Assembly (NCBI GenBank): GCA_008632985.1
Contig: QPGO01000223.1
Location: forward strand, 62,001-108,456
DNA: 46,456 bases
Source: Psammoneis japonica
Taxonomy: Eukaryota
Reading direction: 5' to 3'
Each line of letters opens with the position of its first letter. The first letter of the stretch is position 1. A program made the position numbers and the translations under genes. The notes beneath the pieces are model-generated. The model had not been told where the DNA came from and ran no database searches. It saw only the letters and a program-made list of their open reading frames with translations. Of this stretch, positions 9,868 through 39,191 are shown piece by piece.

Positions 9868-10270
9868 TGTGTACGGTAAATCTATTGAACGAGATGACAA
9901 ACTGGCCCTTTGTCTCTTTTGCCTGTCGACGACTTTCCTCACTCCTCACTCGTGTGATGTGTTTTCGTTTTTTGGCGGCCTTGCTTCTTTCTTTGTATGT
10001 CCGTCGCTCAGACTAGCACAACGCACACCCTTAGAACGACAAACGGACAAAAGCATCGATCGCGAGTTGAGGTGATTATCGTGAATAGGCCTGCCAGTAC
10101 GTAGAGAGCATACGAGGGCCTACGTGAGGAACTTGCTGGCGAAGAAGCAATCATTGCGTTTTTCTTTTCATTCCCTCATCCCGTCTTCTACTTTGCGGCA
10201 CTTCCAACAAAACGACGCTTTCTTTCGATAGAGAGACACACTCTCTTACTTTATACTGTACACAAGAAAC

Positions 10271-10687
10271 ATGACGAACGATGCTACTTTCACCATGACG
10301 GGACAGCGTGTCGCCTTTGATGACGAACGGGTGGACGAGGTGATTATGGGACAAAAGGTTCTCATGAACCATTTGGCGAAAAACGAGGCGCCGGTGATTG
10401 GTGGAACGACGCAAACGTCCACCGTTTACTTTGCTCTACAACAGGCGGTCAAGGGTCTGAAAATGATACAAAAGACATGGCGAGGCAAAATTGGGCCCTT
10501 TACCATGGAAGTCGTTTTGGGAGATTACGAAGCGGGAGACCACAAGTTTACCTTTGAACCAAACAAGGTTCCTGATGGGTTTTTGGAACGTGGGCTTTAC
10601 AAGCAAGTTGTGCAATACTTGGACAGTCATGGCAAGGTGCTTCTCGAGTATACCAGTCACTTTCGTATTGTCAAGAAGAAGAAATAG
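10271..10687 (+). CDS. Rho GDP-dissociation inhibitor-like protein (Ig-like domain only)
   Basis: VKGLKMIQKTWRG...VVLGDYEA...FTFEPNKVPDGFLERGLYKQVVQYLDSHGKVLLEYTSHFRIVK parallels the RhoGDI C-terminal pattern VSGLKY.Q..YRKG...MVGSY.P...P.GMLARG.Y...F.DDD...L...W...IKK. Confidence 0.75.
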   Translation: MTNDATFTMTGQRVAFDDERVDEVIMGQKVLMNHLAKNEAPVIGGTTQTSTVYFALQQAVKGLKMIQKTWRGKIGPFTMEVVLGDYEAGDHKFTFEPNKVPDGFLERGLYKQVVQYLDSHGKVLLEYTSHFRIVKKKK

Positions 10688-12206: not shown

Positions 12207-13433
12207 TTAGACAATGGGACATCCGGGATGCACAGGTGCAGCACTCTCAACAGACTCGGCAGCGGCGCTCGTCTCCTTTCCAACCACCCGAGCTGCGCGG
12301 CAAGCAAATCTTAGAATGAAGGCAAAGAACAGCACGAAGCTTGCGCAAACGGCAACAAGGAGAAAAATCTTCCAGCCGTCCACCTTGTCATTGGGATCTG
12401 GGAGAACAGCGAACTCGTGGCAGTCTTCAATTTCCTCTTTTCCACCAAGCACGTCCTCACCAATGGAACGGACACAAACTTCATGGACGCCTTCAGCAAG
12501 ACCGGCCAGAGAGACGTTAAAGCCGACCGTGATCGCTCCTTCTTGTGGTAGATCGTGGGTGAGATTGGCATTGGCGATCTTGTTGAACGCGCCACCATCA
12601 ACCTGGAGCTTCAGGCTTTTAAGAGCAGTTCCAATGAGATCGTCGATGATGTCAGGGAGAGCATCAGGGTCAGGAACAGAAGTGCATTTTCCTCCGTTTT
12701 GCAAAATGTCAATCATGTTGTTTGGCACCGGCTCACCACACTCATGAGACATGTCGCAGTCCACACTGTCGCCAATGGCAACCGTGTGAACTGTGGCTTT
12801 TGTTTTGCCGAGTTCCTTGGCTGCCTCTCGAATGGTTTCTTCATCTTCGTTGCAAAGCCCGTCCCCCGCAAAGACTGCAATGGTTGTGCCGGCAGTGTTG
12901 GAGGGATCGTGGACCAGTTCTGCCGCCGCTGTCAAGGCGTCAACACAGTTGGCACCGCCAATGGAGCAGCCATCTTCAATCCCCATCTTGATGTCTCGGC
13001 TCGTCGGAGGCTGCAGCGAAGTGCTGACGGTGGCAAAATCATCAAAGTTGATTACACTGGCCAGTTCTGCAGACCCATCTGAAGTTGCTTTATAGTGGAG
13101 TGCTTTGAAGAAAGCTTGAACGCATTCCAGGACAGTTCCGCAGTCACCATCCTCTTCTGTGGTGCTCTCAGACATGTCCATCATGTAAATGTACGAGACA
13201 TCTGCCTCGCCCTTTCCAACGCTCGTGTTGCCGAGGATGTTCACGTCCATGGCGTTTGGCAAGGTGGAGTTGACAGCAGGTGCCGCAATGCTCACGTTGA
13301 GCACAGCCCCATTCTCAAGATCCTTCATTTGTGGATGAAGCTCTCTCGTTTTGGGCTGAAAGGTGCAAAGACCTGCGGTGTCTCTGGCGGAGAGCAGAAG
13401 TGCTGCTAGAATGGTGGCAATGGATGGCTTCAT
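12207..13433 (-). CDS. Signal-peptide + von Willebrand factor A (VWA) domain + single C-terminal TM protein; ORF open but possibly hypermutated
   Basis: Signal MKPSIATILAALLLSA. MIDAS-like DMSES, GGANC..AL, IAVFAGDG and VHTVAIG. TM WKIFLLVAVCASFVLFFAFIL. ATG taken at 13433. Confidence 0.75.
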   Translation of the reverse strand: MKPSIATILAALLLSARDTAGLCTFQPKTRELHPQMKDLENGAVLNVSIAAPAVNSTLPNAMDVNILGNTSVGKGEADVSYIYMMDMSESTTEEDGDCGTVLECVQAFFKALHYKATSDGSAELASVINFDDFATVSTSLQPPTSRDIKMGIEDGCSIGGANCVDALTAAAELVHDPSNTAGTTIAVFAGDGLCNEDEETIREAAKELGKTKATVHTVAIGDSVDCDMSHECGEPVPNNMIDILQNGGKCTSVPDPDALPDIIDDLIGTALKSLKLQVDGGAFNKIANANLTHDLPQEGAITVGFNVSLAGLAEGVHEVCVRSIGEDVLGGKEEIEDCHEFAVLPDPNDKVDGWKIFLLVAVCASFVLFFAFILRFACRAARVVGKETSAAAESVESAAPVHPGCPIV

Positions 13434-13721
13434 GGTCACTCATTTGCCAGATTCGTTTTCTCTGCCATCACAAGAGGGAAAAGGCGGAGTTGAGCGCAAT
13501 GAGAATGTGCAGCGCATTTCAACAACTTGCAGACATTGATCCTTTCTGAAAGCACCAGGAACACAGGGTGGGCATCCTCTCTGTCTTTCTAGTTGGATGT
13601 GAAGTCGCACAATCTGCGAGATGTGTGACACTGCAAACGTGCCTTGTTTGTGATGGCACCCAGAGCAATTGTTGTTCTGCATCTGCGATCTTCTCAGTCA
13701 CGCTCAAAACAGAAAAGATGC
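13368..13721 (+). repeat. Direct repeat copy 1 (VWA gene 5' end plus upstream region), paired with 14761-15122
   Basis: Shared blocks include catcacaagagggaaaaggc, aatgagaatgtgcagc, acttgcagacattga and tctgcatctgcgatctt...gctcaaaacagaaaaga. Confidence 0.9.
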
Positions 13722-14760
13722 TGTCTGGCGCGGCGCCCACCTGCGGTGCGGGCAGTCTGCTCCCACCTGCTTTGGGGGGCCTGCAGCAATTGGTGTGTGT
13801 GGCTCCAGTGTCGGTCATGCATTGGAGTGTGATGCATGACACACTCTCTCCACTTGTAGAGAGCAGAGTGGCAGCAGTGTGTCATGCATCACCATGAAAC
13901 AATTGTGTGACAGCATGATGTTGATCCGCAATCTCATTTGTTCAGTCATGGTTGAGGTTGGCGCGCGCGCGCGGATGTGCAGCGTTGAGTCCATGCGTCG
14001 ACGCACCACGTGCACTTGGGACTGTCAATGCACCAGCAAACACCAGCAGGGTCGCACGGCACCGGTGCCGTACGACGCAGGCCGTGTGTTCCAGTGATGA
14101 GGGCAATTTTGCATCAGCAGCTTTTTTGATGTCCGTAATTTTGGTTGCAAGCAACTCATTTGAGAAGAAAGCAGTGGCGGCTGCTCAGAGGCTGGATGAT
14201 GTTCTTGCTGCTGTGCATCTCGGAACCCAGCTTTCATCCCGAGTCGGTGTGTTGTGGATGCGTTCCAGCTCCACTCTAGGTGGGACCTCGCACTGCTGCA
14301 CTGTGCGACATCAATGGTTTTTTGGATCGCGTCGCATGTCGCGCATGCACATTTCTGCGTGTCACATTCTACGAAATTGTTTCATGCTCCCTGTTTTGCG
14401 AAGCCAAAGGCTTTCTATTTTCAACGTTTGTGAGAATAAAAATGCGCTGGGCACATTCTTTAATGTCTGAAGAATGCACCCGGGCAAACTGTCAATGATG
14501 CACTGCAAGTGTGAAGGAGGAGATGCATTCGCAAAATTGCCTCTTTTTCTGTTGGCGATCATTTGTCTTTCCATTGCAGCATGAATTTACTACGGAGCTC
14601 GCACGTAGAATTCTGCCGCCAAAGGTGAATTTGCTGTGTTGCTCATCTTTCATCTCTCACTTCAATGAAGGGCTGGATCAAAAAGCAAAATCAGCAGCAG
14701 CACTTGTTTTTGTTGATCTTGCAAAGCTCAGCTTCCTCATTGCTCTTTCTTTGCTGCACC

Positions 14761-15122
14761 AAGACCTGTGGTGTCTCTGGCGCAGATCAGAGGTGCTTCT
14801 AGAATGGTGTGGCAATGGATGGCTTCACATGGTTGTTTGTTTGCCTGATTTGTTTTCTTTGTCATCACAAGAGGGAAAAGGCAGAGGAGAGCACAATGAG
14901 AATGTGCAGCACATTTCAATGACTTGCAGACATTGACCCTTTCTGCAAACACCACCCAGGGGCACAGGGCAGGTGCCCTCTGTCTTTCTCATTCGATGTG
15001 AAGTCTCACAATCTGCAAGACATGCGACACCACAAACATGCCTTGTTTGTTGTGGTGTTTGGAACAATTGTTGCTCTGCATCTGCGATCTTTTCAATCAT
15101 GCTCAAAACAGAAAAGAGATGC
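14761..15122 (-). pseudogene. Decayed duplicate of the VWA gene 5' end and promoter (repeat copy 2)
   Basis: Aligns to 13368-13721 with many CpG transitions, CA/TG swaps and small indels. Confidence 0.85.
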
Positions 15123-15171
15123 CGCTCGGTGAGGCGCTCCTGGCTTGGGGGGTCCACTCTCAGCAAAAACA

Positions 15172-15778
15172 TTGAAAATGCTCAAAAGAGTGGCTCAAGA
15201 TCATTTTGACCGCATGTTTTAAACAACAAACCATCTTGCCAATCAAGAGGCACACACAACACAACAACTCTCAAGTGCAAAGAGCTGCTCAGCAGCATGC
15301 TTGGGAGTGCAAAACATGTTTCTCACAAGCCAAGAGGGCACAGCAGTTCTGTGAAGGGGGTGCCAATGACTGAGGATCTGTTTTTTTTTACAATTTTTAG
15401 CTCCAGCAACTCAAGCTCACAAAATGTGTGGTGGCACAGTTGTGCCCTCATTGCACTTGTTCTCAACAAGAACAAAGATTTGCAGTTTGAAGCTCTGCTG
15501 GCAACTCACAAGCCTGATGGCGGATCGCACAAACCCAAACCACTCTCAGCGAAGATGGTGAAAATGCTCAAAAGAGCAGGGCTCAAGATCATTTTGATTC
15601 CCGCCAGACATTTGACAACAAGCCAGCTTGCCAATCAAGAGGTGCACACAAAGCACCTGTTGAGAGTGTGAAGAGCTGCCTTGTTGGCATGCTTGGGAGT
15701 GCAAAACATGTGCCTCAATCCATGAGGAGGGAACAGCAGATCCATGAAGGTGGGCGCCAATGACTGAGGATCTGTTTT
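15172..15778 (+). repeat. Two diverged direct repeats of ~215 bp (15172-15385 and 15559-15778)
   Basis: Shared tgaaaatgctcaaaagag, gctcaagatcattttga, cttgccaatcaagagg, gcatgcttgggagtgcaaaacatg and gccaatgactgaggatctgtttt. Confidence 0.85.
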
Positions 15779-16822
15779 GCTCCCTGCATTCCTCAACAAC
15801 AGACACTCACATGCTTTTCCTCTTCCACATGGCAAGCATGTTCCAAAGTTGTGTTGCAACAAAAGAGCTGTGTTTCCCCCCTCAACTCAAGTGGAGAGGG
15901 TTCGACTAAAATGGAAAAACTGCCAGCAGACGGGTTCCAGTCCTAGGTGGGACTTTTTGTGACATTTGCCCCGTAGAATTCTACGTGCGAGCTCTGTAGT
16001 TCGTACTCTGGTTAATGCATATATTTATCTTCGAAAACGGCCAAGTTTGTAGTACATCTATTCCTGTTCGTACTCGAAGTTTTGGATAATACGCCTGCCC
16101 TACGCCATTCTTAAGACACTCGAGAATGGCGTAGAAGAAAAAAATATTAAAAGTTGTTCAATGGATAGCCTGATAAATGTACTATAAAATCATACAAAAT
16201 TTCGCCAAAATCACGTAGAAATGTACGTGCGCGACATACGACGCGATTCAAAAAACTATCGATGTCACAGTTCAGTAGTACGAGGTCCCACCTACTAGAC
16301 CTGGAACGCGTCAGCAGGGATCGATCATGAAATGAAAGCTGATAACTTCAAGGGGAAGCATGGCACAAGTCACATCGCAACGCAACGTTTTGGTTTACAT
16401 GGATTGGATCAGAATCGGAATGAACTTAATCATGGACATATATTTTTCTAATCTTATATCATTATTCAGGTTTGTATGTATGATTTTTGACTGATCTTTC
16501 GAAAGAGGCAAAAAAATGTGGTGTGCAACTTGAAACTGCCGTCGCTGCCAACATGCGCTTGATACCATGTGAACACAATGAGTTTGGAACGGTATGATAG
16601 ACAGCACCTCCCGCCACATGGCGTCTGGATCTAGTTTTTGTGTTGAGTCTCTCATTTGCCGTTGTTTTCAGAAAAGATGTTTCAATCGTGTCAAAATATG
16701 GAGTCCCGACAAATCCTGGTCGCGGGACTTACGGGTTATGCACCTCCATTCACATTATTTCACACATCCAAAAAAGTTGCGTTAGTTGTACTCTGTGTGA
16801 AAATCTCAAACCAGAACACACC

Positions 16823-23976: not shown

Positions 23977-26308
23977 GGGTGCGAGCAATGCCGAGTTTGC
24001 CGCTGCAAGAGTGGATCCAAGAGCCTTCATGGCTCAAAGAAAAGTAGATTTCAGAATGCAGCACATGACATGAACGACACAAACACTTTGGCCGCGTGTC
24101 GCGTGAGTCAAGGAACAATAAAGAAGCTTCATAGATCGCAGCTGTAGCTCAGAGGTTGTAATAGAATTGTTGCTGTTGACAAAAGTATCGTTAGAGAAAT
24201 TATGGCTACATAGAAACTGGGGATCGACCAACAATCATTTCTTGGAGGAAAGATGGACTTGATGACCATGCCTTTGACACAGTGACTCTCCCTTTCAAAC
24301 GGAAGAGCCACCAGCCAGACAGAGTTGCATGTTGCCTAAAAGAAGCAGGGATTTTTCTGAAGACTTTCCAGCAGCACAGAAATCACTGCCAGGTGAAGCA
24401 ACGTCACAAGCCAATGGAAGAAGCCCAATGTTGCAATGTTGCACAGCAATGAAAACACTGAGGGGCTCTTTGGCCATTTTAGCTGTGTTTCTTTTTGCAG
24501 CCACAAGCCAGCAATGTGCTTGACAATGTCGCAAAATGGCATGTGCTGTTTTGGACAAAACAGAGTGCTGTTTTCATCAAATTCATTCCTCACATTTCGC
24601 TGCATTGCTGTTATGCACACCCTCATTGTTGCTGTTGCACAGTGAGCAAAACATCTCAGAGCCATGTGGTGCTTCCAGCTGCCTCAGCACCAACTCAGCA
24701 CACCATGTCATCCAACATCTCTGTGAGGTGTGCAAGCACATTTTGTTGCAGCCAAAAGTGGCCAACAACTCAGTGCAAAACTGCCAAGGCAGGTTTCTCT
24801 TTGTTGTGCCACACAAAGTGGCTTCCACCTCAGTCTTTCCATGGCCTTGGATTAGCAAGGAGCTGGCTCCATCTCACAAGAGCTCCTCTCAGTTGTTCAA
24901 AGTCCTCAATTCTCAGCAAAAGAGACAGAGGTCAGCAATGGATTCTCACAAACCACTTTGGAATGAGCAACTTTGACATGGTGCTGCCAACGACCTCTGC
25001 AAACTGCAAAGTTGTGTGGGCAATGGTTTCAAGTGAGAGAAGCATCCTCCATGTTGAAAACAGAACAAAAGTTTTTGACAAAGGTCAGCTCTGTGCAAAC
25101 AAAACATGAACATCTTGCTCTTGCAAATGCCCCAACTTTTAATTTGCTTTTGCAAAAGCTCAGACCCCATGGCAGCAAAGTGGTGGTTGCTTTTTCAGAA
25201 CCTTCTCTGCTGCCTTTGGCACAAGACACAAGAAATGTGGCCAGTGTGGCCAGCTCATGGGAGGTGGTTTCTTGGACTCTCTTTCCAGCTACATTGTCTG
25301 GCCCTGTGGGCACCCTTTGAGCTCTCACTTCTTGAACCTTTCCAGCTTGACACATGAACAAAAAACCTTGGCAAACAAGAAGCCATTGTGGCTGGGCAAC
25401 AACTTGCTCCACAATTGCAACAATGAGAAAGCAGCTGCTGCCAAGAAGAGAAAGAGCACTTTCAATCAGTTGCAGGAAAATGTCAAGCACTGCCCACCCC
25501 TCATCTTGCATCTGCTGTTGCTGCCAGTTTGTTGCATGCCTGTTGCACTTTTTCCTCTCTGCCTCACTCTCAATCACAATGCTTGCAATTTTTGGGTGGC
25601 AGTTTTTCTCATTCAGAGCACAGGCTCAAATGGAGAGCAACAGGAGAAAATGTTGAGGCATTTGCCAGCCACCCAGAGCTTTTGACATGGCCAGCATGTG
25701 CACACACACACATGCACACATTAGATTTTGCTTGAAAGCAGCAGTGCACATGGCTGAACAGCAATTGCCTTTGCTTGAAAACAGCACGCCAGCCACTCCA
25801 ACATGGCTTGGGGCAAACCAAAGTGCAGCGCTCACAGAGTTGACAAGTTGGCATGGTGATGTGTCTGTTTCATGGACGTGAAAGATGAGAGCATGGTGTC
25901 AAGAGTTGAGTTCACAACAAAATTTTTAGCAAACCCAAATGCTTGCATTTTTAACATTTCATGGCTGCCATGTGGAGATGCCAGTTGTCATTTTTTGAAT
26001 CATTGACAAATTCTGTCTGCTCATCTGTCCTCTGTGAATTGATGCACTCATCATTCTGGGGGACGTCTTTGGCTGGAAGTGCAAGACTGTTGAAAAACGT
26101 TACACAGAATTTGTGCTGAAATTGTCTGTCAATCAGTGTGATTGGGGCATTTGGGAATGCTGGACAGATCATGTGCAGGGTTTTCCAATTGCAAAATTCT
26201 GCACAACAAACAGTTTGCAAAACAAGGAAGATGGTTTAAAAGCAACCGTCAGCCCATTGTCACTGTTGTCTGTGCTGTGTTGTGCCTCAAGCTTCCACGT
26301 GTGACAGG

Positions 26309-27640
26309 GGGGTCAAAACCAACTGTTTGCCTCTGCAAAAAATGCTGGGGGTCACAAATGTGTCGACTCAATCTGTTGAAAGTGGACATTGAAATGCAAA
26401 AGTGTGGATTTGGTGTGCTGCCACTGCAAGAGGAACAGCCCCCCAGTGCTTGAGCACGACACTTTGTTGGTTGCAGATGTTGCAAGACTGCTCTGCTTGC
26501 AACTCACATGTGGGCACCACAGTGGAACACATGCAGAGCTTGAGCCCCTGCATGACTGTGGTCACATTTGGCACTTTGTGCACCCTGCACAGACCCTTCA
26601 TGTGTGCAGTGTGTGACACTTGCATGGTGGCCAGCAGTTGCGCCATGACTCATTGCTGCATGGAACTCCTGCAGCCCATTGCAGGTCTTGCACCAGGAGT
26701 CACTTGTTTGACGTTTGTCAGTGCAGCACACTTTTTTGCATGATCAGCATTGCTGAAGACAGCCTGCAGATGCAGGAAAGCATTCTCACTGACAAGCCCA
26801 GGTTTGTGCACAGCAGTTGCTCCCATGTCAAGGTCAGTCAAGTGACAAGCACAACCCAGCACCCTGCTTCTTGTGGTGCACACAAAGAATGCCATTGTCA
26901 TTGAACTTGAAGCACCGTGCATGTCCTGAGTCTTTTGTCCTTTTGCCCAGGTCCTGATGAGCTGATGAGCATTGTCATCACGTGTGTCTTTGTTTCAATG
27001 TGATCGCAGAGTTTGTTTTCTCACACAACACTCTTTTTATCTTGCCAGGAGCTCCATTTCTCAGTGCAACATGCCTCTGCACTTAGCACAGAACTCCTGC
27101 AGCCTGTTGCAGGTCTTGCAACAGGAGAGTCATGTTTCTCAGCATGATGCACTTCTGCATGATCAGCATCACTGTGGACAGCCTGCAGATGCAGGAAAGA
27201 AGCAGCCCAGCTGCCAAGTCCAGGGTTGTGTGCTGCACAACACCCAAGGGGGCGCTGTCCTGCCAACAAGAAAACAAGGCTTCAATTCTCCCAAGGACTC
27301 TGTGATGCTTCAGCAACATCTTTTAGAAATGGGTCATTGACCAAAGGGTTCGACAACAATGTTCTTTGCAAGCACTGCTCAGTTGTTCAGAGCTTGTTGC
27401 CTTGGCTTGGCTTGACCACCCCCACCCCTTGGCAACCTCCTGCCAAGAACAAACAACCCACCAGACCTCTGAAGAGTTCTTGTGGCTGTCAAGAGGCAAC
27501 AATGTGACCTGCAGAATTGACACAGACTGACATTGTCAACTCAATCATGTCCTTTGTTTTTTCAGCTGCTGTGACCACAGATTGTCCTTGGTGCAGACTG
27601 CAACACATGCAACAACACTCTGACAACAACAATCTTGGCA
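26309..27640 (+). pseudogene. Decayed 3' fragment of the methyltransferase gene (copy A), split by an ~860-bp insertion (~26395-27255)
   Basis: tgcaaaaaatgctggg...tctgttgaaagtggacattgaa (26334-26393) and tctcccaaggactctgtgatgcttcagcaacatcttttagaaatggg...tttgcaagcactgctcag...gtggctgtcaagaggcaacaatgtgacc (27261-27640) align with 29691-30160. Confidence 0.85.
26664..27198 (+). repeat. Two diverged direct repeats of ~110 bp (26664-26780 and 27092-27198) within the insertion
   Basis: Shared aactcctgcagcc..ttgcaggtcttgca, tgcatgatcagcat and gacagcctgcagatgcaggaaag. Confidence 0.85.
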
Positions 27641-29029
27641 GCTGCATGTTGTGGAGCTGAAAAGACACACAAGTGTGGTGTGCTGACAGCAAGCAACACT
27701 TGGCACTCTGTGGTTGCTGTCAACAACAACAAAGAGAAAGCCCTTCAACAGCAAAAAAAACACAACAGCCAACCCAGCATTGTCCCTGTGGACAATGTCA
27801 CAGCATGTTCTGTTGGTTTCTCTCTTTGCCACAACTGCTGGCTGCTCTTGAGAAGAGACAACACACTCTTCTGTCCTGCACCACCCTGCAATGCCAACAC
27901 CAGTGCTGAGAGCCAATCCATTGGATCCTCAAACAAGAAGACAAAAGAATGTGGTGCAACACAGCATGCCCTGCCAGCACACACATCCCTCCAAAGCAAC
28001 CCTCGTTTTGTTCTTGGGAAGCCATCAAAAGTGTCCCTTTTCAATTTTCTCATCATCATGCAGAGCAGCAGCAAGCACAAAGCACTGCACAACAAAGCAG
28101 CTTCAGAAAATGATGTCAAGCCAGTTCTCACTCAGTGGCTCAATGCATGAAATCAGCGCCAAGACTCTGCAGCACTGATGGACCATGGTGTGGTTTGGGA
28201 GGACATGTGTGGAAAAATTCACATCCCCCAGTGGGACAGTGGGAATGACAGACTGCAAAGCAGAGCAAAAGCAAGTCACACAGGTGGGTTTTCAAGGGGA
28301 AAGTGGCATGTTGGGTGTGAAGTTTTGCAGCGCACCAAAGAAGTTGGTTTGCAAGGGACTTTTGGTGACGGCAATGCCAAGGCTCTGGAGGCCCCATTTT
28401 TGTGCGTGCAGGGTTGGTGGTGCGACGACAGGTGAGGCCAAAATGGGCCAAAGTTGTGTTGGTCCAGGTGGCTGAAGCAGCAGGAAAAATGCCTGCAGGA
28501 GAAAGCTGAGCATCAGCAAAGGTGGCACACACTGAAGACTCAGACGATGTCCAAGGCGGGACGAGGCACTGGGAGTGGGCACTCTTGATTGGCGGTGGTG
28601 CTGAAAAGGAGACGGCAAGCAAAACACCCATGTGCTCCATCCAAGATGATCAACGGTGAACGGGGTGAGATGGATGTCGGCTTGAAGAAACAACTGTTGT
28701 GCCGTGTTGCGCGTCTCGTGAGTTTGTGCCAAAGGCGGGCAAGAAATAACACATCGGCGCCGACAGGTGGTGGTGTGTGCTCAGTCAGTGCTGTGACCTC
28801 GTTTTCCGTTGCCACTTACAGTAACGGCATCGCCAAAAATCTGGAAAAATTTCATATCATCACGAAGATAAATCATTGTAAAAACCGTTATCTTTTGAAA
28901 AAACAAGGGATTTTCAAATCAAGAGAGAGTTGATCTGCGTCTGTGATCTGCGAAAAACCAACGAAGTCGTGATTGTACCAGTATCATAATAAAAAGAAGA
29001 ATTCGTATCGAAACCTGAAACAGCACATC

Positions 29030-30022
29030 ATGCGATCGCGTCAACATTCGCTGCTTGCCAGATCATTGATGCTGTTATGCGTGGCTGCGGCAATCGCAAC
29101 TCTGACAAATTTGACAAGTCGCGTCGATGTCTTTGTAATGCGCAAGAATCATGATGAGAAACGCTTTTCCATTGACGAAATCCCCTCAGAAGAACGTCAT
29201 TCTCTTTGCACCCAGAATCCGTACGCTCCCTCGATGAACAAGTCACTTGTAGACATTGCCCGTGGAGCTCATGATTGGCTCGAGTTGCTTCCCAGGCACC
29301 TCAACCGAGCTAATTCTACCAGCATGTCACAGCATACTCACAAACGATTCTTTCCATTTGAGCCCCTAGCTACCTGTGAGCAATCCTGCATTGGTGGACC
29401 GTGCGGAGACGATAAGAGTAAAATCATGTGTGGCATCGAAAGGTTGCGGGAAGGATGCATTGTATACTCGATTGGGGGCAACAATCAATGGCAGTTTGAA
29501 AATGACTTGCTGAAGAGAACGCCTTGTGAAATTCATACCTTTGACTGTACGGGCAATATCAAGAGATTTAAGAAACCCGACAATAGTCGCTTGAAGTTTC
29601 ACCACATTTGTCTTGCTGATACATCCGTGCCTGCCCCCCAAAATTGTAGTGGGACTAAAGTTTGCGGCGAGATGATGACTATTGAGGGTATGCAGAATAT
29701 GCTGGGTCATGAACGCATCGATCTACTGAAAATGGACATTGAAGGCTTTGAATGGCCCATCTTTGAGTCGTGGCGTACGATTTTAAATGACACGAGGAAG
29801 GATCTTGTGCTGCCATTTCAGATTCTTGTGGAGGTTCACTACAGGACACAATTCAAGGAACTGTTTCACGCCAACAAACAAGACTTCAAGTCTCCCAAGG
29901 ACATTGTGATGCTTCAACAACATCTTTTACAAATGGGCTACGTGACTGCAGTACGGGATGACAATATCTTTTGCAAGCACTGCTCAGAGCTTACTTTGGT
30001 TCGGTTTCAATGTTCCAACTAG
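29030..30022 (+). CDS. SAM-dependent methyltransferase, Methyltransf_22 / METTL24-like, with N-terminal signal anchor
   Basis: CIVYSIGGNNQWQFE, CEIHTFD, IDLLKMDIEGFEW and QILVEVH motifs. N-terminal hydrophobic LMLLCVAAAIATL. Normal TA/CG content. Confidence 0.88.
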   Translation: MRSRQHSLLARSLMLLCVAAAIATLTNLTSRVDVFVMRKNHDEKRFSIDEIPSEERHSLCTQNPYAPSMNKSLVDIARGAHDWLELLPRHLNRANSTSMSQHTHKRFFPFEPLATCEQSCIGGPCGDDKSKIMCGIERLREGCIVYSIGGNNQWQFENDLLKRTPCEIHTFDCTGNIKRFKKPDNSRLKFHHICLADTSVPAPQNCSGTKVCGEMMTIEGMQNMLGHERIDLLKMDIEGFEWPIFESWRTILNDTRKDLVLPFQILVEVHYRTQFKELFHANKQDFKSPKDIVMLQQHLLQMGYVTAVRDDNIFCKHCSELTLVRFQCSN

Positions 30023-31403
30023 AACCTGTCAAAAATGAAGAATCCAGATCTGACGAGTTGCGGCTGTCGATACGCAACAGTGTGACCGGCAAAAGTAAAC
30101 TAGACTACCAATCTTAACTTACGACTAAGACATCTCTATTCTGACAACACATTCTTCTATAGCACATAATCTTACAAGGTTTACTACACTGGTTAGCCGC
30201 AGCATCAACGAGAGTACAAGCTATGGCACGACGGCTTCGCGTCATGGTTGCTGTCGTGGGAGAGGCCACTTGCAGGGCCGCCGATATATCCTTTGGGGAG
30301 ACTGTTTTGGACCCGAGCATTTTCTTTAATGAAACAATCCCGACTTTTTGAGAGAGTGCTGGACGAGTTTCAACTACGTGTGGGCCACAAAGTTGGGGGG
30401 CTCATCTGTTGCACCTTTGACATTCCCCATGATGACACTGCAGCCCAGCCTGCCTTAGATTTAGAAAAAAAGCACAGAGTGGTGAAGTGCTGTAAAAAAA
30501 TGGGTGATGCAACCAAAATCTCAGACAATGATCAAACATTTTGTCACAACACAAATGCACTCAAAGGTTGTTTGGGCATGCCAATCTTCTTGTTGAATGC
30601 AGACAAAGCTCTCAGGATGTTTTCAGAGCCACTGTTGTGGCAGCACAGCTGGGGCAAATGTTGGTGGATTGGACCCCAACAGCAGCCTTGCTTTCTTGAT
30701 CAACCAACCAAACTGGCCCACACATCTGTGTGAGTGAGGACCAAATGCGCAACTCCCCTGCCAGCCACTGTGTCTGTCTTTGGTGAGTGAGGAGGTGCTG
30801 CACAATCTGATGATGCAAATGCCAACACATGGCGCCAGTTGGAGATGGTCTGTGGTGGGTCAGAACATGTCCAACTGGGATGCAGGTCTCAGCACTTGCT
30901 CTGTGCTCTTCTTGCTTTCTTGTGGATCAGAGGACAAGCTCTGGGCAATTGAAACAATCAGATGGCTCACTCACCTGAAAATTTCTCACTCACCTCTTGA
31001 TGTGTTGCCAGCACTCACTTGAAACTGGCAACACCCCCCCCCCAGCATTTTGTGGTGCTGCTGCTGCATTGACAAGCAAAGAAACAAAAACCAAAACAGG
31101 CAAGTCAGTGCACACATTCAAGAGACTTCTCCCCCCTGAGCTTTTTTGCTCCACAGGTGCTTGGTTGATCAGATCCTCACTTTGATGAGATTCATCTGAT
31201 CCGTTGTCAGAGACCAAGACAAAGGAGAGTGCAATTTTTCTTCAGGAACAAATGACAAGTGGCAATGGCAGCTGCAGCCAAGAACCCATCTTGCACTTGG
31301 TCGTGCCATCATTGTCAACAAAAAATTGAAAAATTCAATGAATGAAACAAGAAACCCATGACCAGTTGTTTGCAAGGGAGAAAAGTGATTTGACCAACAA
31401 AAT

Positions 31404-31757
31404 GTCCAACAACAACACAGGAAAAATGTGCCACCAAAATGCACAGATGGAGCACTTGGGGAGCACAACAACCAGCGCCTGCATCATTGACATTAGACCT
31501 TCAACCTTGGAGTCAACCCTTGGCAGTTGTGACATGCAAAGCAATGGAGGGCAACAGGGGGATGGTTGAAGGGAGAACAGCAAGTCCAACAATGACACAG
31601 GAACAATTTGCCAACAAGAAGCACAGAAGGAGCACTTGGCAAGAAGCACAACAACCAGCACCTGCATCATTGACATTGACTGGACCTTCAACCTTCAAGT
31701 CAACCCCCCAGGCAGCTGCAATGTGCAAAGCAATGGAGTGCAACAGGGGACAGTTGA
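31404..31757 (+). repeat. Tandem duplication of an ~180-bp unit (31404-31568, 31584-31757)
   Basis: Shared gtccaacaa..acacaggaa, ggagcacttgg, agcacaacaaccagc.cctgcatcattgacatt, gaccttcaacctt and tgcaaagcaatggag.gcaacagggg. Confidence 0.9.
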
Positions 31758-34700
31758 TTTTTGGCTGACAACCAAGAGAAGAGAATTGGCACTTCACCAG
31801 CAAATGTCAATGGTGCTTTGGCTGGTGGAGGGTTTGCAGCCCAGTCAAGAGCAAGGGCTGGTTGGTCCATCCTGGCCTTGTGCTTTTGTTGGGCGGTGCA
31901 TTTGCATGGGAGCTCTTCTTTCAGTCCAGTCAGCCTCCTGTCATTTTTGGCAAGAGAGTTCCTCATCTTCCAACATTTCAAAAGGGGACATTGTGCATTT
32001 TTGCCTTTTGTTGGCTGTTTGAGGACCAGCAACATCAGGTGCAGAAGAAAGCTTGAAACATTTGTCAACAGACTTTTGCAGCTTCTGTGCATCAATGAGC
32101 ATTTTCAATCTCAAGGCTTTGTCTGCACCCAGAATTTCTCTGTCATTGCTCTCACAACCAACCAGTGCCACCACAGATTTGTGGCCAGATTCTGATGATT
32201 TGCGTGCAACAATCTGTCTGCACACATGCTCAGTTTGTCAAAACCCACACACAGTTGGGTTGCATCTCTGGCAAGCAATCACACTGAAAACTGCCTCTTT
32301 GTGAGGACATTGAAAGAGGGCAAAGCTGACCAGCACATGTCCCATCTGCAGCTCAAAAGGAGTGCTGCAGAGAAAGCATAGACTGATGTTGGACTGATTG
32401 CCTGGTGGGACCTTGGTGAAGACATCAGACATTTCCATTCTCAATTGGTTCCTGTCCAACCTTCAACCAGCAACTGGCAGCCATCCCTCTGGTGATGGTT
32501 GTTGTTTGAGCACCACAACAGATTGCTCAGATGATTGTCAGGACAAATGGATGCCAGCCAGCCTCCTCCACCCCATCACCAAGATTTTGATGCTCACATG
32601 CAAACAATTGCAGGTGTTGATTGATGAAATTTTTCTCATTGTTGTTTGCATGTATGTTCTGTCAATTGCTTTGCCGAGATCAGTCTGTGTGCTTGCCTGT
32701 CCATTTCAAGTGTTCATCTGCAATGTGACAAGAAGAGGACAACAACTTCAGGGCCATCAAGTCTAGGAGCAATCATCAAATTTGTCGTCAACTTCTTCTG
32801 ACCCACACTGTTGTTTGTCCTCTTCAGTGGGATGAACAAGACAATTCGGCCAAGTTTGGCAGTCACTCCATTCTAGCTTGCTGCTTTCTGCGACTGGAGG
32901 AGGACTTGAAATCACAGAGCCACATTTCTCGTCTGACTTTGCTTCATGGTTTCTGAGCAGATAAAAGCAGACAAAGGCTTGAGACTTGCAAAGACAGTCT
33001 GTGGAAACTTCAACAATTTGGGATGGGCCGGCCCAAGAATTCTGCATTGGCCGGTGCACGTGGCCATCACACTTCCATCACAATGGCAGGCAAGGAGAGG
33101 ACCATGGCATGAAGTGGCACATCACGTTCTCCCATTGCTGTGGAGCACTTTTACACACTGTCATCTTCCTCAGATTCTTCACCCTCATCGTCACTGTCAA
33201 GGCCAAAAAAAAGGGAAAAATCCTCAGTGACATGCAATCATTGTTCATCAATGCATCATCAACTCAAGGTTTTTGAGCTTGGGTCCTCATGCGTGTGCAT
33301 CACTCCCAGCTTGGGAGGTCTGCAATTGGTGCAGGAAGAAGAGAAAGAGAAAGACCTCCCATGGATCATTGCATTTTTTAGTGCTGAGCCAATCTGGCCA
33401 GCACCAGCCTCTGCACATTTTTCTTGCAGATGCCATGGCGCTGTTGCGTCATTTGCACCATCGTCGTCACGTCTTTTCATGGGGTGAGTCATGCATGAGA
33501 TTTGTCTTGATTGTCCACATCATGTGGGGGTGTGCGCATTGGCCCAGCCTCAACAAGTGCCGTGTGTGTTGCAAAACATGTTGTTGACTGAAGTGGTGTG
33601 ATTTTTTGTTGTTGTTGTCATTGTCCAATTGTGTTTCTTTCATTTTACCTTCTTTTTTGGTTTGTGCTCCAATGCACAGCATTTGCTTTCACACCAGCAT
33701 GAGCATGGGCACAATGTGTGACAGAGCACAAGGTGATTTGTCAACCTTGCAACCTGCGTTTGTGGTCATCACATTGTCTGATGGCATGCTCATCCTTTGT
33801 TTTTCAACTGGTTGTTCCTTTGACTTGTTTTGCTCTTGTGGCATCTGTGCTTGCCCTTTCTTGTTTTGCCTTGTCTTTTGACATGTCAACAGTGCTTGAC
33901 AGAAAAATGAAATTGAAGCCTCTCAAGTTAACACAAGGCTTCTCTTTGTTGACTCTGCATGTGGAGGCCTGGGAACAATGCTCACCAACATGAGCTCTGA
34001 GACTCAGGCTCATTCTGGATTTGTGGATGAGGCACCCCTTGATGTTCTTTGCCTTGTTCCTGCCAAAGGTTTCAACAGTGTGTGCATCCATTCCAAGGGA
34101 TTCCAGACTGACTTGGTCATTCCCTGTGGGGTGTTTCTGTGCTGAGTTCTTTAAAGACAGCACATGATTGCCTTTCTTCCTTTTTGGTGTGGAGCTGGTT
34201 GTTGCCAGACAAGTGCATGCTTTGTGAGAAATTTCACTTCCAATTGTGTCTGCTTTCAGCAAGTGCCTTTTTTGGAAGAAATGCCAAGAAGCATCTGATT
34301 GGCACTTGGGTGATCCATTCTTGTTGGTTCTTCAAGAATTCTCCATTGCCTGTCTGTCTTGTCTGCTTCACTTTGGATTCCCAGCCTTTTGAAAACAATT
34401 GCCTTGGAGCCTTGGGTGATTGCATGATCACAGAATCTTGTCATTTCAACAAGGACAGCAAATTGTGCCTGCTCTGAGCAGCAGCCTGTTCTGTTGCAAT
34501 GCTCAATGAAGACAGAAAGGTGGGGATCTGCATGCAGCCAATTTGATGGCCGCTGCTTCTGCAAAGTCAGCTTGGCTTTAACACCTGAAGATTCTCTCCC
34601 TCAGCAGTTGCACTTTGCTCCTTGATTTGTTGCTTTCATGCAAACCCCGGTCATCAACAATTTGTTGCATCTTCTGCATGATCTGCAGCGCCATTTTTCC

Positions 34701-35145
34701 AAATTGTTGGTGCACTTCAATGTGATCTTGAGCAAGGCAATGGGGCCCTAGAAAGAATGAAAGAGACCTTCTTCATCACGCCTGTTGATTGACGGTTGCT
34801 CTCCAAATGGAGATGAACCCATGTTGCATGGAAGTTGACCAAATCCTGTTCAGCACAACAGACAACAATGCAACTGGTGCCATGGTGAGCATCAGTGGGG
34901 CACAATGTCGTCATGAGGTGGAGGGTGCTTCGTGCAAGCACCAAGGCTGCATGGAATTCTACATGGAATGCAGAAATTGTGCAGAAAAATTCACTGACCA
35001 GACTGAAAGTGCAATGCTCTGTTGAAGGCGAAATGCCACAATCACGGGTGAAACATTAAAAAGGTTTCACATTGACGAACATTCATTTAAATGAAAACAT
35101 GCATCTGATTCTTGCTGCCGCTTCTGCTGATTTTATCACCAACTG

Positions 35146-35590
35146 TGCTCACATTTGCTCAGATTGCTGACACTTGCTCACATTTGCTCAAACATGCTCA
35201 TTTGGATTGCCAACCACTTTTGTGGGGAAACGCAATGATCTTGGGTTCTCCTCCTTGACACGATGATGCCAAACAAAGAAGAAAAAGAGAACAGAAATGG
35301 GAGCACAAGAAACAAATGATGCACAATGACCGAATGACTGATGAGTGCAGCAGCAAAATGCCACAGCTTTTTGTGCAGCGTGGGATGATCAACTCCCTGT
35401 GGTTGATCACTTTTGGGATCATGTGCCAAAAACAGACATGCTCAAATGTGCAGCAACATCAAAAAAGTTGGGCCTTTTGTTGTTGTGTCTTGTGTGCTAT
35501 GTTGTTTTGTCAGAAAACAAAGATCATGCAAAGATCTCACATTGCTCACATTTGCTCATGTTTGCTCACATTTGCTCATGTTTGTTCATT
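35146..35590 (+). repeat. 10-bp minisatellite TTGCTCA(CA/TG)T in two clusters (~35146-35200 and ~35535-35590)
   Basis: ttgctcacat ttgctcatgt ttgctcacat ttgctcatgt ttgttcattt read directly. Confidence 0.85.
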
Positions 35591-36676
35591 TCAATCACCA
35601 ACTGTTGGTCATGAAAACAAGCAGGGTTGGTGATTGAAACAATGAGTTTGGTTGGCAAGTTGTTTTTCACATGTTGTGCACAAATGAACAATGGCAACAA
35701 TGTTGTCAACAAACAACTCTCACACATGTCTTGAGGTGTCTTGCACAGACTCAACTTTGCTCACACAGACTTTTCGTGCAGAGCTGCACAAGACTCACAC
35801 CAGAGCATGTGCAGAAAAGATGCAAAATCACAGCACTGATACATGATTTGTTCAAGATTCCATCTCTGACAGTTGTGTGAGTCCCACAGAAATTCTGGAT
35901 CAAACTCCTCTGTGCACAGGACTCAATCATGCAATGTAACTTGGAGGAGCTGGGTGACAATGACACATCTCTTTGCAAGACCCAACAAACTGGCTGTTCA
36001 CATGCAGAGAAAGATCATTGAGAGCAGACATTGATTGCGATGGTCAAACTGCACCTCATGCTGTCGTGCACACAGATGTCATGGTTTGTGATCTGATGCC
36101 TCCCAATTTGCAGTTGGAGGAAATCTGATGACACAGTTGTGTGAGATGCAGTTTGACCCCCAAACCTTCTTCCTTTGTGGGGTCCATTGTGAACATTGCA
36201 TTTTGCAGTGACAGGAACAGCTTCATGGGGTGCATTGACTTGAAAGGCAACAGGAGGTGGCAAAGTCCTCATCCATTGCAGCCCTTGAACTCCATGCAGC
36301 ACTTGAGCTTTTCAAGAGACATTTGCAGCAAAACAAGAGGAGATGGAATCTTTGCCACTGCTCATGAACACATGTCTTGGAAAATTCTGACCTTCCACCA
36401 TTGCTGTCAATCAACCACTCTCCTCTGTCATTCTTTTTGGGAGACCCAGATGAGGGGAAGGATGAGGAGCATTTGTTGCTCCACCCGAGGTTGGTCACCA
36501 TCCATCTCAGCAGCTGTGCAGCAGGCAGCATGTTTGTGATTTCTTTTGGTGACAAAGACAGACAGAGGGGGTTGTGGGAGGGTCACATTCTCTGCTTTGT
36601 TTTCATTTGAGTGCTGCCGTTGGTCCATCATCTCACTGTCATCTGTCCCTGGTCTGGGGTCTGGCATCAAGGGGAA

Positions 36677-37118
36677 GGGGTCAAAATGAGCTGTTTGTCA
36701 CTGCAGAAAATGCTGGGTCATGAACCAACTGATCTGTTGTGAATGGACATTGAACATTTTGAATGGTCCAGCTTTGAGTCGTGGCATGCAATTTTCAATG
36801 ATGTGAGTGCGGATCTCTCATGCTGCCGCTTCTTCGATGGCGAGCTCTGGGGTGTGCTGTGAGACTCGGGGAACTGTTTGACACTGACAAAAAAGACTTC
36901 AAGTCTCTCAAGAGCATGGCGGTGCTTTGACAATGTCTTTTTAGAAATGAAATGGGTTGTGGCTGTGCCTGCCGTGTGAGATGACAGTGTCTTGTGCAAG
37001 CACTGCTCAGAGCCAGAGAGCCTGCTTTGGCTTGGCTTCAATGTGTTCTCCAACCACCAGCCATCAAGACACAACAGTGTGACCCACAAAATTAAAAAAA
37101 AGAGTAAAGATCTTAACT
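36677..37118 (+). pseudogene. Decayed 3' fragment of the methyltransferase gene plus 3' flank (copy B)
   Basis: tgcagaaaatgctgggtcatgaac...aatggacattgaa...ctttgagtcgtggc...ggaactgttt...agacttcaagtctc...tgcaagcactgctcagagc...caacagtgtgacc...tcttaact aligns with 29691-30119. Confidence 0.9.
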
Positions 37119-37384
37119 GACTTCCTTTTTATTCACAGTTAAAGATTGTCCAGGTTCTTGCCTGCTTTGCCCAAAACTTGTCAACAGCACGCGCTTCGTG
37201 CGCGTGCGCTGCTGTCGGCGGCAAGTTTGACGCGATCCCCAAAAGGCGACGTGTCTCATTTTGCAATTTTGTCTCATTTTTTTCTCAGATCTTTCCTCAT
37301 AACAGCTTTCGATCTGTTCTTTGGAGTTATTTGCCATCTGGCAACCTTCGACGACGCACATGAACTCTCATTACTTGCTCAAAA

Positions 37385-38995: not shown

Positions 38996-39191
38996 TTATG
39001 TTTCCTCTATCGCATGTATATTTTCGGACTGAGAAGCGCCCAGTTTATCGTCGCGAAATAATCACGGATGTGGAGCATTGGCTTCAGACTCCGTTTGTCT
39101 TTAGAATCTTTCTAATATCTTTGGCGTAATAGAAATAAATAACGACGGCAGCCACTCGTTTTGAATCTTCAACTAGGAAACAAGTATTCGA

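Follow-up and report, generated by a model that had tools for sequence, protein, structure and literature searches.

Sharply bounded domains poor in TpA and CpG in a diatom contig, and a candidate TpA-directed transition process

Deamination of 5-methylcytosine depletes CpG, as in vertebrates, and diatom transposons are methylated. What, then, could remove TpA together with CpG from discrete blocks of a diatom genome? The question is raised by a window of 46,456 nucleotides (the whole stretch analysed) from Psammoneis japonica (GenBank assembly GCA_008632985.1, contig QPGO01000223.1, positions 62,001 to 108,456, forward strand). An initial annotation had proposed that repeat-targeted hypermutation acted at 24240..37120, in the reverse direction of fungal RIP, which creates TpA from CpA.

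Composition of the depleted domains

We scanned the window in sliding 500-nt windows for counts and observed/expected ratios (o/e) of TA, CG and TG+CA. Each 500-nt window held 0–4 TA in 24251–28500 (o/e 0.00–0.10) and in 30501–37000 (0.00–0.12), with 0–7 CG (0.00–0.26) and 0–11 CG (0.00–0.36), respectively, and TG+CA o/e was 1.6–2.2 across both. The TpA/CpG-poor, TG/CA-rich domains of the initial annotation are real: TA o/e is 0.05–0.06 in domains 1, 2b, 3 and 4 (Table 1), against 0.70 in 13 short intergenic spacers outside them (5,783 nt; CG o/e 1.10). Its hand counts were also exact (0 TA and 0 CG in 27601–27900; 6 TA and 4 CG in 16021–16080). The remainder of the window outside the domains has 1,158 TA (o/e 0.56) and 1,563 CG (1.03), the stretch 8407–11300, with no ORF of at least 150 aa, has o/e values of 0.61 and 1.02, and TpA o/e for the whole window is 0.39. 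Relative to matched intergenic DNA, depletion in the domains is 10–14 fold.

Domain borders are sharp, with the transition falling within ~50–150 nt. At domain 3 the dense TA run stops at 24211, CG is back at 28331 and TA at 28747, so that in 28331–28750, upstream of a methyltransferase gene, CpG is present again and TpA still absent; to the right of domain 4, TA returns at 37093 and CG is dense again from 37190. The extents first given needed revision: the flanks of 24240..37120 are depleted, but 28.75–30.4 kb is an intact gene of normal composition, and 11.5–16.0 kb is TpA-poor but has lost CpG solely in 14.5–15.9 kb.

Only TA and CG are lowered in the domains and only CA and TG raised, these two about equally and with no consistent strand polarity. 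The other 12 dinucleotides are unremarkable, as are GC content (47–49%) and tri- and tetranucleotides conditioned on their sub-words (o/e 0.52–1.49). Pyrimidine–purine steps make up 24.2% of dinucleotides in domains 3 and 4, as they do across the remainder of the window, whereas the share of CA+TG among them is 95.6% against 60.5%. Because the total is constant and only the identity of the step has shifted, the domains are ordinary sequence altered by transitions.

Table 1 Domains, genes and decayed copies in the window, with pooled dinucleotide counts (o/e in brackets)
Feature	Position	Strand	Description	Pooled interval	TA	CG
Domain 1	1350..2750	.	Between two genes; same TpA and CpG loss	1400–2700	5 (0.06)	14 (0.18)
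Domain 2a	11460..14500	.	TpA-poor, CpG-retaining; surrounds live gene	11600–14500	28 (0.17)	148 (0.76)
VWFA-domain gene	12207..13439	-	Intact, conserved; within TpA-poor domain 2a			
Domain 2b	14600..15900	.	TpA- and CpG-free; contains decayed VWFA-gene copy	14600–15750	5 (0.06)	15 (0.24)
Decayed VWFA-gene copy	14756–15139		Copy of 5' region (13363–13738); within domain 2b			
Domain 3	24215..28750	.	TpA-free; CpG lost from ~24230 to 28330	24300–28300	14 (0.05)	23 (0.10)
Decayed methyltransferase copy	27236..27520	+	3'-end copy in domain 3; tblastn match, residues 290–338			
Methyltransf_22/FkbM-type methyltransferase gene	28973..30022	+	Intact; PF13383, 2.9e-22			
Domain 4	30400..37093	.	Free of TpA and CpG	30500–36950	21 (0.05)	53 (0.15)
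Decayed methyltransferase copy	36677..37095	+	3' third of gene; right edge of domain 4			

Direction of change and flanking bases

Scoring purines and pyrimidines only raises identity in five paralogue pairs. These include the VWFA-gene copy against its source (82 to 93.5%) and the methyltransferase copies in domain 4 (against 29691–29990, 70.6 to 86%) and domain 3 (against 29876–29987, 79 to 93%); the remaining two pairs rise from 77 to 88% and from 81 to 90%. The intact methyltransferase gene divides domain 3 from domain 4 and has normal composition (TA o/e 0.50, CG 0.86). It has 173 homologues (best ~50–57% identity), the named ones from diatoms, and we assumed it to be ancestral and used it as a proxy for polarizing changes in its two decayed copies. 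In this small sample, 17 aligned TA of the gene were kept once and became TG nine times and CA twice (11/17), and 18 aligned CG were kept once and became TG seven times and CA four times (11/18); the other 14 dinucleotides were retained at 43–81%. Read against this presumed ancestor, TpA changed by A>G/T>C on either strand and CpG by C>T/G>A, in agreement with the initial annotation. Of 14 aligned CG in the 13.3-kb VWFA copy, 3 were kept in the 14.7-kb copy, 5 became CA and 4 TG.

The VWFA gene carries the same TpA loss. It has 10 homologues, one of them named, from the diatom Grammatophora, and the best is 52% identical over 90% of the query. Its TA o/e is 0.16, with 4, 4 and 3 TA at the three codon phases (1,233 nt), and its protein has 3 Tyr in 409 residues compared with 1.3–2.9% in homologues, yet retains the conserved Y82 and Y84. 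Loss at all codon phases with conserved Tyr codons kept would be expected of mutation pressure opposed by purifying selection, but not of blanket miscalling.

The original idea of repeat targeting fared less well. Decayed duplicates are present in domains 2–4 as annotated, but recognizable duplicated DNA is a minor part of the domains, and for most of their sequence the window contains no second copy. Neither the intact methyltransferase gene nor an inverted gene pair at 39.2–42.4 kb (75% identical) is touched, whereas the single-copy intact VWFA gene is TpA-depleted. A search for viral or transposon domains in 146 stop-to-stop ORFs of at least 60 aa gave 0 matches above Pfam cut-offs. Nor does a burst of hypermutation have to be invoked: the decayed copies also carry 8–10% transversions (28, with 52 transitions, at 336 aligned sites of the domain 4 copy), and slow decay is equally possible.

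The TA that survive have characteristic neighbours. Among 45 survivors in domains 1, 2b, 3 and 4, 28 are YTAR and 3 RTAY, compared with 155 and 382 of 1,155 TA in the rest of the window (Fisher, p = 2e-13 for YTAR and 6e-5 for RTAY), and YTAR is 2.7–2.9 fold over the expectation from CA/TG precursors. Nineteen of the 45 are TAG, 12 of these TTAG, often behind T runs. Survivor contexts could partly reflect the origin of new TA, besides the loss of old.

A two-process reading and known systems

The reading we favour, with a probability of roughly two in three, is that two context-specific transition processes have long acted on ordinary diatom nuclear DNA in discrete domains, which hold decayed gene duplicates, other unrecognizable DNA and one live gene. 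One process would be a TpA-directed A:T>G:C change, converting TpA to TpG or CpA on either strand and most efficient with a purine before the T (half-site R-T-A, equivalently T-A-Y). The other would be deamination of methylated CpG to TpG or CpA in presumably methylated sub-domains. TpA loss extends over the intact VWFA gene, where CpG is kept, and this indicates two separable processes. The footprint of the first would be somewhat wider, taking in that gene and two promoter-proximal stretches that retain CpG. The domains would be chromatin-like, with both processes confined to them over a long time. The composition, the restriction to transitions, the direction of change, the flanking-base rule and the recurrence in an independent assembly are observed; the enzymes involved, the state of methylation and chromatin and a role in defence are inferred.

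Methylated-CpG decay alone resembles the pattern in converting CpG to TpG/CpA, with low CpG o/e and TpG/CpA excess domain by domain in silent DNA, but it cannot remove TpA, the loss of which exceeds the CpG-depleted parts. RIP likewise introduces transitions regionally, into duplicated or non-functional DNA, and may serve genome defence. Its direction, however, is opposite (TpA/ApT is 0.059 and (CpA+TpG)/(ApC+GpT) 1.99 here, as the initial annotation had recognized), and in our domains intact duplicate partners are spared and an A:T>G:C component is present.

The initial annotation knew of no described system with this signature, but TpA-only A>G/T>C hypermutation is now reported in Bigelowiella natans (Mettrop et al., bioRxiv 10.64898/2026.01.13.699255). 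According to that preprint, Illumina reads of mutation-accumulation (MA) lines revealed 302 single-nucleotide mutations, of which 231 lay in two integrated viral regions; with a single exception these 231 were A>G or T>C, and every one of these transitions was at TpA. It also describes 124 genomic clusters of 1-kb windows depleted of TpA and enriched in CpA+TpG. With its cut-offs, 17 of 46 1-kb windows qualify here, in runs of 2, 3, 5 and 7. The candidate TpA-directed process would be of the same kind, sharing TpA>TpG and TpA>CpA transitions on both strands, discrete kilobase-scale regions with the same clustered footprint, and a marine algal host of the SAR group. The differences are that the host there is a chlorarachniophyte and not a diatom (a stramenopile); that TpA depletion goes much further here (rho ~0.05, compared with 0.45 in the NCLDV region there); that CpG is lost here, whereas the accessible text of the preprint mentions 'CpG' 0 times and reports no G:C>A:T component; that targets there are viral and silent, and the recognizable ones here are duplicates of host genes plus a single host gene that is still live; that its main text gives no flanking rule such as the loss of R-T-A/T-A-Y and sparing of YTAR; and that live mutations were recorded there, while here the process is read from its sequence footprint. 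An adenine deaminase, suggested in the initial annotation, remains the most economical idea, and the preprint likewise proposes an ADAT2/TadA-type DNA adenine deaminase. The silent-DNA blocks look like the long-term footprint of TpA-directed DNA editing plus ordinary methylated-CpG decay; live editing of this type has so far been seen in one unrelated alga only.

A further parallel is the suppression of CpG and UpA in cytoplasmic RNAs and in RNA viruses, where UpG and CpA are in excess (PMC3829696). The dinucleotides depleted and enriched are identical, but suppression there reflects selection on RNA and is moderate, whereas ours is near-total, lies in non-coding, pseudogene-bearing DNA and has a direction obtained from gene-to-pseudogene comparison.

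Alternative explanations

Could true TA and CG bearing symmetric modifications (5mCpG and, at TpA, a mark such as 5hmU) have been miscalled strand-wise as TG or CA? As such miscalls predict, each of the two lost dinucleotides is self-complementary and turns into TG/CA; paralogues often differ by a CA↔TG swap (5/48 and 6/48 for the methyltransferase gene against its copies, 5/32 and 3/41 for the 13.3-kb and 14.7-kb pair); survivors favour particular contexts, often after T runs; and 1980s work reported 5hmU preferentially in TA and TC in a dinoflagellate (cited in PMC11071213). However, when 58 metagenome loci (231,774 nt) were searched for windows with TA o/e < 0.2, low CG and CA+TG > 1.5, two SPAdes-style contigs from one other assembly, L016 and L026, alone had such windows (CG o/e 0.04–0.48), in intergenic DNA. 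Their 29 surviving TA comprise 17 YTAR, 12 mixed and 0 RTAY, where the background proportions are 16, 52 and 32%. Depletion there is milder and shorter (0.8–1.6 kb), and the contigs could come from this species or a near relative; recurrence of both depletion and context rule in independent contigs argues against an assembly artefact. Independently built contigs of run X1, which may be the source sample, contain 0.97 of sampled 31-mers of 24001–34000. Miscalling would have to exceed 90% at two dinucleotides over 11 kb, and we know of no modified-base errors that reach this. Conserved Tyr (TAY) codons are correctly called inside a TpA-poor block, and it was Illumina data that revealed the B. 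natans process. On this indirect evidence we consider miscalling improbable.

Slightly less probable again is that the domains are simply the diatom's neutral mutational equilibrium, with selection preserving TA and CG elsewhere. The copies are old enough, by their transversions, for equilibrium to be attainable, and TpA is low window-wide, but the spacers and 8407–11300 keep both dinucleotides, nine other genes have many TA and CG at synonymous positions and codon boundaries, borders are sharp to ~100 nt, and depletion reaches one intact gene and spares those beside it.

We give the same low probability to a single process, in which TpA loss would be a side effect of CpG methylation, caused by error-prone Pol-eta-type patch repair near deaminated 5mC or by over-active VSP-like T:G repair. 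There is a precedent in E. coli, where depletion of CTAG is attributed to very-short-patch repair, and TpA and CpG loss are mostly co-located here. Error-prone repair near methylated CpG has also been proposed (PMC3409255). The WA signature expected of Pol eta, another of the original candidates, is nonetheless absent, AA/TT being undepleted (o/e 1.10–1.32 in domains, 1.18–1.20 outside); TpA is lost without CpG at 11.6–14.5 kb and 28.33–28.75 kb; strong T:G>C:G repair should preserve CpG, not erase it; and the B. natans TpA process, as far as described in the accessible text, has no G:C>A:T component.

The least probable alternative is selection on RNA or DNA structure, purging transcribed domains of UpA and CpG or disfavouring TA and CG for chromatin reasons: the TTAG survivors behind T runs are splice-acceptor-like, but to our knowledge no virus shows TpA/CpG depletion this strong, no conserved ORF or Rfam family was found in the domains, per-site selection is probably too weak in non-coding DNA, and the domains, which carry decayed pseudogene fragments, show a symmetric rise of TG and CA.

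Extent and composition of the TpA-depleted domains

Five domains of the window (D1, D2a, D2b, D3 and D4) are depleted of TpA, and all except D2a also of CpG (Table). In 500-nt windows, the observed/expected ratio (o/e) of TpA was 0.00–0.10 across 24251–28500 and 0.00–0.12 across 30501–37000, with CpG at 0.00–0.26 and 0.00–0.36, respectively, and TG+CA at 1.6–2.2 across both intervals. The jointly depleted domains lay more than ten-fold below matched intergenic DNA in TpA, and our recount of TA and CG reproduced exactly the hand counts of the initial annotation, which had described a joint loss of TpA and CpG over 24240–37120. That interval is indeed depleted, except between 28.75 and 30.4 kb, where the intact methyltransferase gene and its short flanks have normal composition. 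The feature is real, striking and statistically secure.

Table. Features of the window, with counts of TA and CG (o/e in brackets) and, for duplicated sequence, identity in DNA followed by identity when only purine or pyrimidine is scored
Feature	Position	TA	CG	Identity (DNA; purine/pyrimidine)
D1	1400-2700	5 (0.06)	14 (0.18)	
SYF1 splicing factor	5383-8406			
D2a	11600-14500	28 (0.17)	148 (0.76)	
VWFA gene (-), 409 codons	12207-13439			
VWFA gene 5' region	13363-13738			
D2b	14600-15750	5 (0.06)	15 (0.24)	
Copy of VWFA 5' region	14756-15139			82%; 93.5%
Local direct duplication	15154-15401 / 15540-15797			
Single-exon ORF (+), 1378 aa	16640-20776			
Single-exon ORF (+), 1057 aa	20803-23976			
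D3	24300-28300	14 (0.05)	23 (0.10)	
Local direct duplication	26658-26811 / 27086-27233			
Copy of methyltransferase 3' part	27236-27520			79%; 93%
Methyltransf_22/FkbM-type methyltransferase (+)	28973-30022			
D4	30500-36950	21 (0.05)	53 (0.15)	
Local direct duplication	31404-31561 / 31584-31750			
Copy of methyltransferase 3' part	36677-37095			70.6%; 86%
Cytochrome P450	37385-38995			
Strictosidine-synthase-like paralogues, inverted	39179-40322 (-) / 41292-42413 (+)			~75%; 
13 short intergenic spacers, 5783 nt		314 (0.70)	310 (1.10)	
Rest of window		1158 (0.56)	1563 (1.03)	

The edges of D3 are sharp: dense TA ends at 24211 and returns at 28747, and dense CG ends at 24225 and returns at 28331. 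The left edge of D4 lies between 30380 and 30500, its right edge at 37093. Within D4, CpG depletion is milder at 32600–33500 and 34500–35300 (o/e 0.2–0.36), with TpA still near 0.1; these patches may have been inserted more recently or be less methylated.

The domains consist of ordinary DNA that transitions have altered. TA and CG alone fall in them and CA and TG alone rise (o/e 1.76–1.91), with AA, TT, the other dinucleotides and base composition as in the rest of the window. Pyrimidine–purine steps account for 24.2% of dinucleotides in D3+D4 and in the rest alike, and what differs is their partition: from the rest to D3+D4, the share of CA+TG goes from 60.5% to 95.6%, that of CG from 23.0% to 3.0% and that of TA from 16.4% to 1.4%. 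Given their sub-words, tri- and tetranucleotides were unremarkable (o/e 0.52–1.49). Tandem Repeats Finder returned only eight rows in 24.0–37.3 kb, all short (29–55 nt), which sets the domains apart from low-complexity DNA.

The window otherwise holds eukaryotic, intron-poor genes, including one for a fatty-acid hydroxylase. At E ≤ 0.001 the methyltransferase had 173 homologues, with ~50–57% identity among the best, and all organism-named ones were from diatoms (Amphora, Ditylum, Seminavis and Coscinodiscus), which suggests that the window, too, comes from a diatom. The two very long ORFs adjoining one another upstream of D3 share a stretch of ~159 residues at 26% identity, and the 1057-aa ORF has a weak PqiA-like domain. 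Recognisable domain content consists of host methyltransferase fragments and the host VWFA gene; the bulk of the domain DNA is without recognisable origin. Rfam gave no match in the window at gathering thresholds. No Pfam family exceeded its cut-off among 146 stop-to-stop domain ORFs of 60 aa or more, and Pfam searches of 21 and then 146 domain ORFs found no transposon or viral domain. The VWFA gene aside, sub-threshold matches were at chance level (ALKBH8_N, E = 0.002; YWFCY, 0.003; DUF2946, 0.006). Self-alignment in purine/pyrimidine space revealed no further long duplications or LTR-like terminal repeats. The short local direct duplications in the domains (71–81% identity, 87–90% in purine/pyrimidine space) indicate a history of small tandem duplications there.

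Direction of change in decayed copies, and TpA loss without CpG loss

D3 and the end of D4 each contain a copy of the 3' part of the methyltransferase gene, and D2b contains one of the VWFA 5' region. To polarize substitutions, we took the intact methyltransferase gene as a proxy for the ancestor and pooled its two decayed copies. Among 17 aligned TAs of the gene, 9 had become TG, 2 CA and 2 TC, and 1 was kept; among 18 aligned CGs, 7 had become TG and 4 CA, and again 1 was kept. Every other dinucleotide was kept at 43–81%. In the VWFA pair, the 14 CGs of the CpG-retaining copy corresponded to 5 CA, 4 TG and 3 CG. Together with the constant total of pyrimidine–purine steps, these counts bear out the proposal of A>G and T>C change at TpA (11/17), and the conversion of CG to TG or CA (11/18 and 9/14) agrees with the domain CG o/e of 0.10–0.24.

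Transitions and transversions in the copies numbered 52/28 in 336 sites, 32/22 in 230 and 47/13 in 367, which marks the copies as old, and a sudden burst of mutation is therefore not required. The copy counts fit a decay of TpA and CpG at least an order of magnitude faster than ordinary transitions. Double swaps between CA and TG made up 5/48 and 6/48 between gene and copies, as would be expected if new CG and TA intermediates were resolved quickly, in either direction. We rejected a strand polarity of the substitutions, as the two methyltransferase copies trend in opposite directions: the D4 copy has 19 A>G versus 10 T>C and 15 C>T versus 8 G>A, the D3 copy 9 versus 13 and 4 versus 6.

TpA loss and CpG loss are separable, though they usually overlap. 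At 11.6–14.5 kb TpA is lost and CpG kept, and the same holds for the 420 nt that precede the methyltransferase gene (28331–28750). TpA loss is thus wider than CpG loss and not dependent on it, and because 11.6–14.5 kb loses TpA only, we attribute CpG loss to a second process.

The first of these stretches contains the intact VWFA gene, whose product had ten matches among VWFA-domain proteins of other diatoms (52% identity over 90% of length). TpA erasure can cross a functioning gene and alter its codon and amino-acid usage. The 1233 nt of the gene hold only 4, 4 and 3 TAs in the three codon phases, compared with roughly 6–25 per kb per phase in nine other genes. Tyrosine makes up 3 of 409 residues (0.7%) versus 1.3–2.9% in ten homologues; the invariant Y82 and Y84 (in 9/10 homologues) are kept, phenylalanine replaces another tyrosine invariant in all ten, and cysteine stands where four homologues have tyrosine. 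Such a picture is expected where mutation pressure removes TpA regionally and purifying selection opposes it, and the scarcity of tyrosine and its replacement by phenylalanine may be the amino-acid-level outcome of TpA loss.

Flanking bases and candidate processes

Surviving TAs in D1, D2b, D3 and D4 are biased in their flanking bases. Of 45 survivors, 28 are YTAR (TTAG/CTAA, TTAA or CTAG) and 3 are RTAY, whereas among the 1155 TAs outside the domains these classes number 155 and 382 (Fisher, p = 2e-13 and 6e-5). Corrected for the abundance of CA/TG precursors, YTAR classes were 2.7–2.9-fold over-represented and RTAY classes stood at 0–0.4, with intermediate survival of sites carrying a single purine-side half-site. 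The 28 TAs of D2a followed the same trend (12 YTAR, 12 mixed and 4 RTAY). What is attacked seems to be a half-site, which reads R-T-A on one strand and T-A-Y on the other. TAG survived best (19/45); an excess of TTAG (12) over its complement CTAA (2) was not significant allowing for multiple pairs. This rule, by which R-T-A/T-A-Y is lost and YTAR spared, is testable and can discriminate between candidate enzymes.

The closest counterpart comes from Bigelowiella natans. According to the main text of a 2026 preprint on mutation-accumulation lines of this alga, two regions of integrated viral DNA took 231 of 302 single-nucleotide mutations; of these, 230 were A>G or T>C, every one on TpA, giving TpG or CpA (bioRxiv 10.64898/2026.01.13.699255). 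There, the mutations are reported to arise in some lines only, with rates of ~6e-7 per site per generation, ~1000-fold over background in the region; the genome has 124 clusters of 1-kb windows depleted of TpA and enriched in CpA+TpG; and the authors propose a DNA adenine deaminase resembling ADAT2 (bioRxiv 10.64898/2026.01.13.699255). The thresholds in that text are passed by 17 of 46 1-kb windows here, in runs at 1–3 kb (2 windows), 13–16 kb (3), 24–29 kb (5) and 30–37 kb (7).

Substitutions in the two organisms are alike in being TpA>TpG or CpA. In contrast to the reported A:T>G:C-only spectrum, CpG>TpG/CpA is equally prominent here. The B. natans process is described as targeting viral or foreign DNA; here the recognisable part of the domains is host sequence, the 146 ORFs lack a Pfam match above cut-off, and the remaining bulk may have begun as viral, transposon or host DNA. 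The main text of the preprint mentions neither CpG, diatoms nor flanking bases (bioRxiv 10.64898/2026.01.13.699255), and our literature search for combined loss of TpA and CpG, in diatoms or in transposons, brought up no relevant work. The CpG component resembles decay by deamination of 5-methylcytosine in its low CpG o/e, its excess of TpG/CpA and its polarized CG>TG/CA change. Our preferred reading is that the feature records, in silent diatom DNA, the end state of a TpA-directed A:T>G:C process of the B. natans kind, combined with methyl-CpG decay.

If the process is the same as in Bigelowiella, its reach extends to diatoms, which are both genetically tractable and a major group of phytoplankton, and it would be widespread in SAR lineages rather than a curiosity of one alga, with its end state, a TpA o/e of ~0.05, visible in this window. 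In diatom genomes, such domains could serve to locate silenced or foreign DNA by sequence alone.

TadA/ADAT enzymes deaminate A in a T-A-Y context (tRNA loop U33-A34-C35), and the T-A-Y half-site lost here may be seen to resemble that anticodon-loop context. A broader reading, which we consider unlikely, is an ancient chromatin-guided DNA-editing defence common to diatoms and chlorarachniophytes. In it, a deaminase of the ADAT2/TadA family would act in silenced DNA on adenine at T-A-Y, and possibly on cytosine or 5-methylcytosine at CpG, as a two-base counterpart of fungal repeat-induced point mutation (RIP) running in the reverse direction. Invaders and dead genes would be stripped of TATA-like and CpG sequence, as at times would live host genes, which would lose tyrosine codons.

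RIP itself is indexed by TpA/ApT ≥ 0.89 and (CpA+TpG)/(ApC+GpT) ≤ 1.03. D3+D4 fall on the reverse side of both (0.059 and 1.99; rest of window, 0.574 and 1.23), as the initial annotation had anticipated. RIP also mutates all copies, whereas the intact methyltransferase gene is spared here (TA o/e 0.50, CG 0.86), as is the duplicated gene pair at 39.2–42.4 kb. That pair, with a strictosidine-synthase-like N-terminal domain and up to 62% protein identity, is normal in TpA and CpG, a control indicating that duplication by itself does not bring the signature.

Patch repair of the Pol-eta type, which the initial annotation had listed as a candidate, should, as in phase 2 of somatic hypermutation, produce A>G at the WA motifs TA and AA, lowering AA/TT and raising AG/CT. 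No such fall was seen: AA o/e was 1.19–1.26 in the domains and 1.18 outside them, TT 1.10–1.32 and 1.20. A-to-I editing of the ADAR type, which prefers a 3' G and, if fixed via an RNA intermediate, should leave strand-polar A>G with 5' U and 3' G favoured, does not fit, there being no consistent strand polarity and TAG surviving best.

Related loci in a metagenome

An unlikely alternative is that the signature is an artefact of sequencing or assembly. Independently built contigs of the sequencing run X1, which may be the source sample, contained 0.97 of sampled 31-mers of 24001–34000. We also examined, in 2060 windows of 500 nt, 58 metagenome loci that encode methyltransferase relatives and total 231,774 nt. 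TA o/e was below 0.2 in 28 of the 2060 windows, 11 of which also had low CG (0.04–0.48) and CA+TG above 1.5; these came from two loci only, L016 and L026. The other 17 belonged to L031 and L056 (66% GC), with normal CpG.

L016 and L026 are contigs of one microbial-mat metagenome assembly, and their SPAdes-style names suggest that it is short-read based; they could derive from the same or a related species. Their depleted stretches are intergenic. Of 29 surviving TAs, 17 were YTAR, 12 mixed and none RTAY, where the respective background shares are 16%, 52% and 32% (Fisher, p = 3e-7 and 2e-5). Conserved tyrosine codons were, moreover, correctly read within a TpA-poor block. These observations argue indirectly against an artefact.

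CpG-poor or TpA-poor stretches at 1212–3399 of L016 and at 1–2041 and 5636–7577 of L026 adjoin methyltransferase paralogues, as D3 and D4 do. This adjacency could be coincidence, or the family could tend to adjoin silenced DNA.
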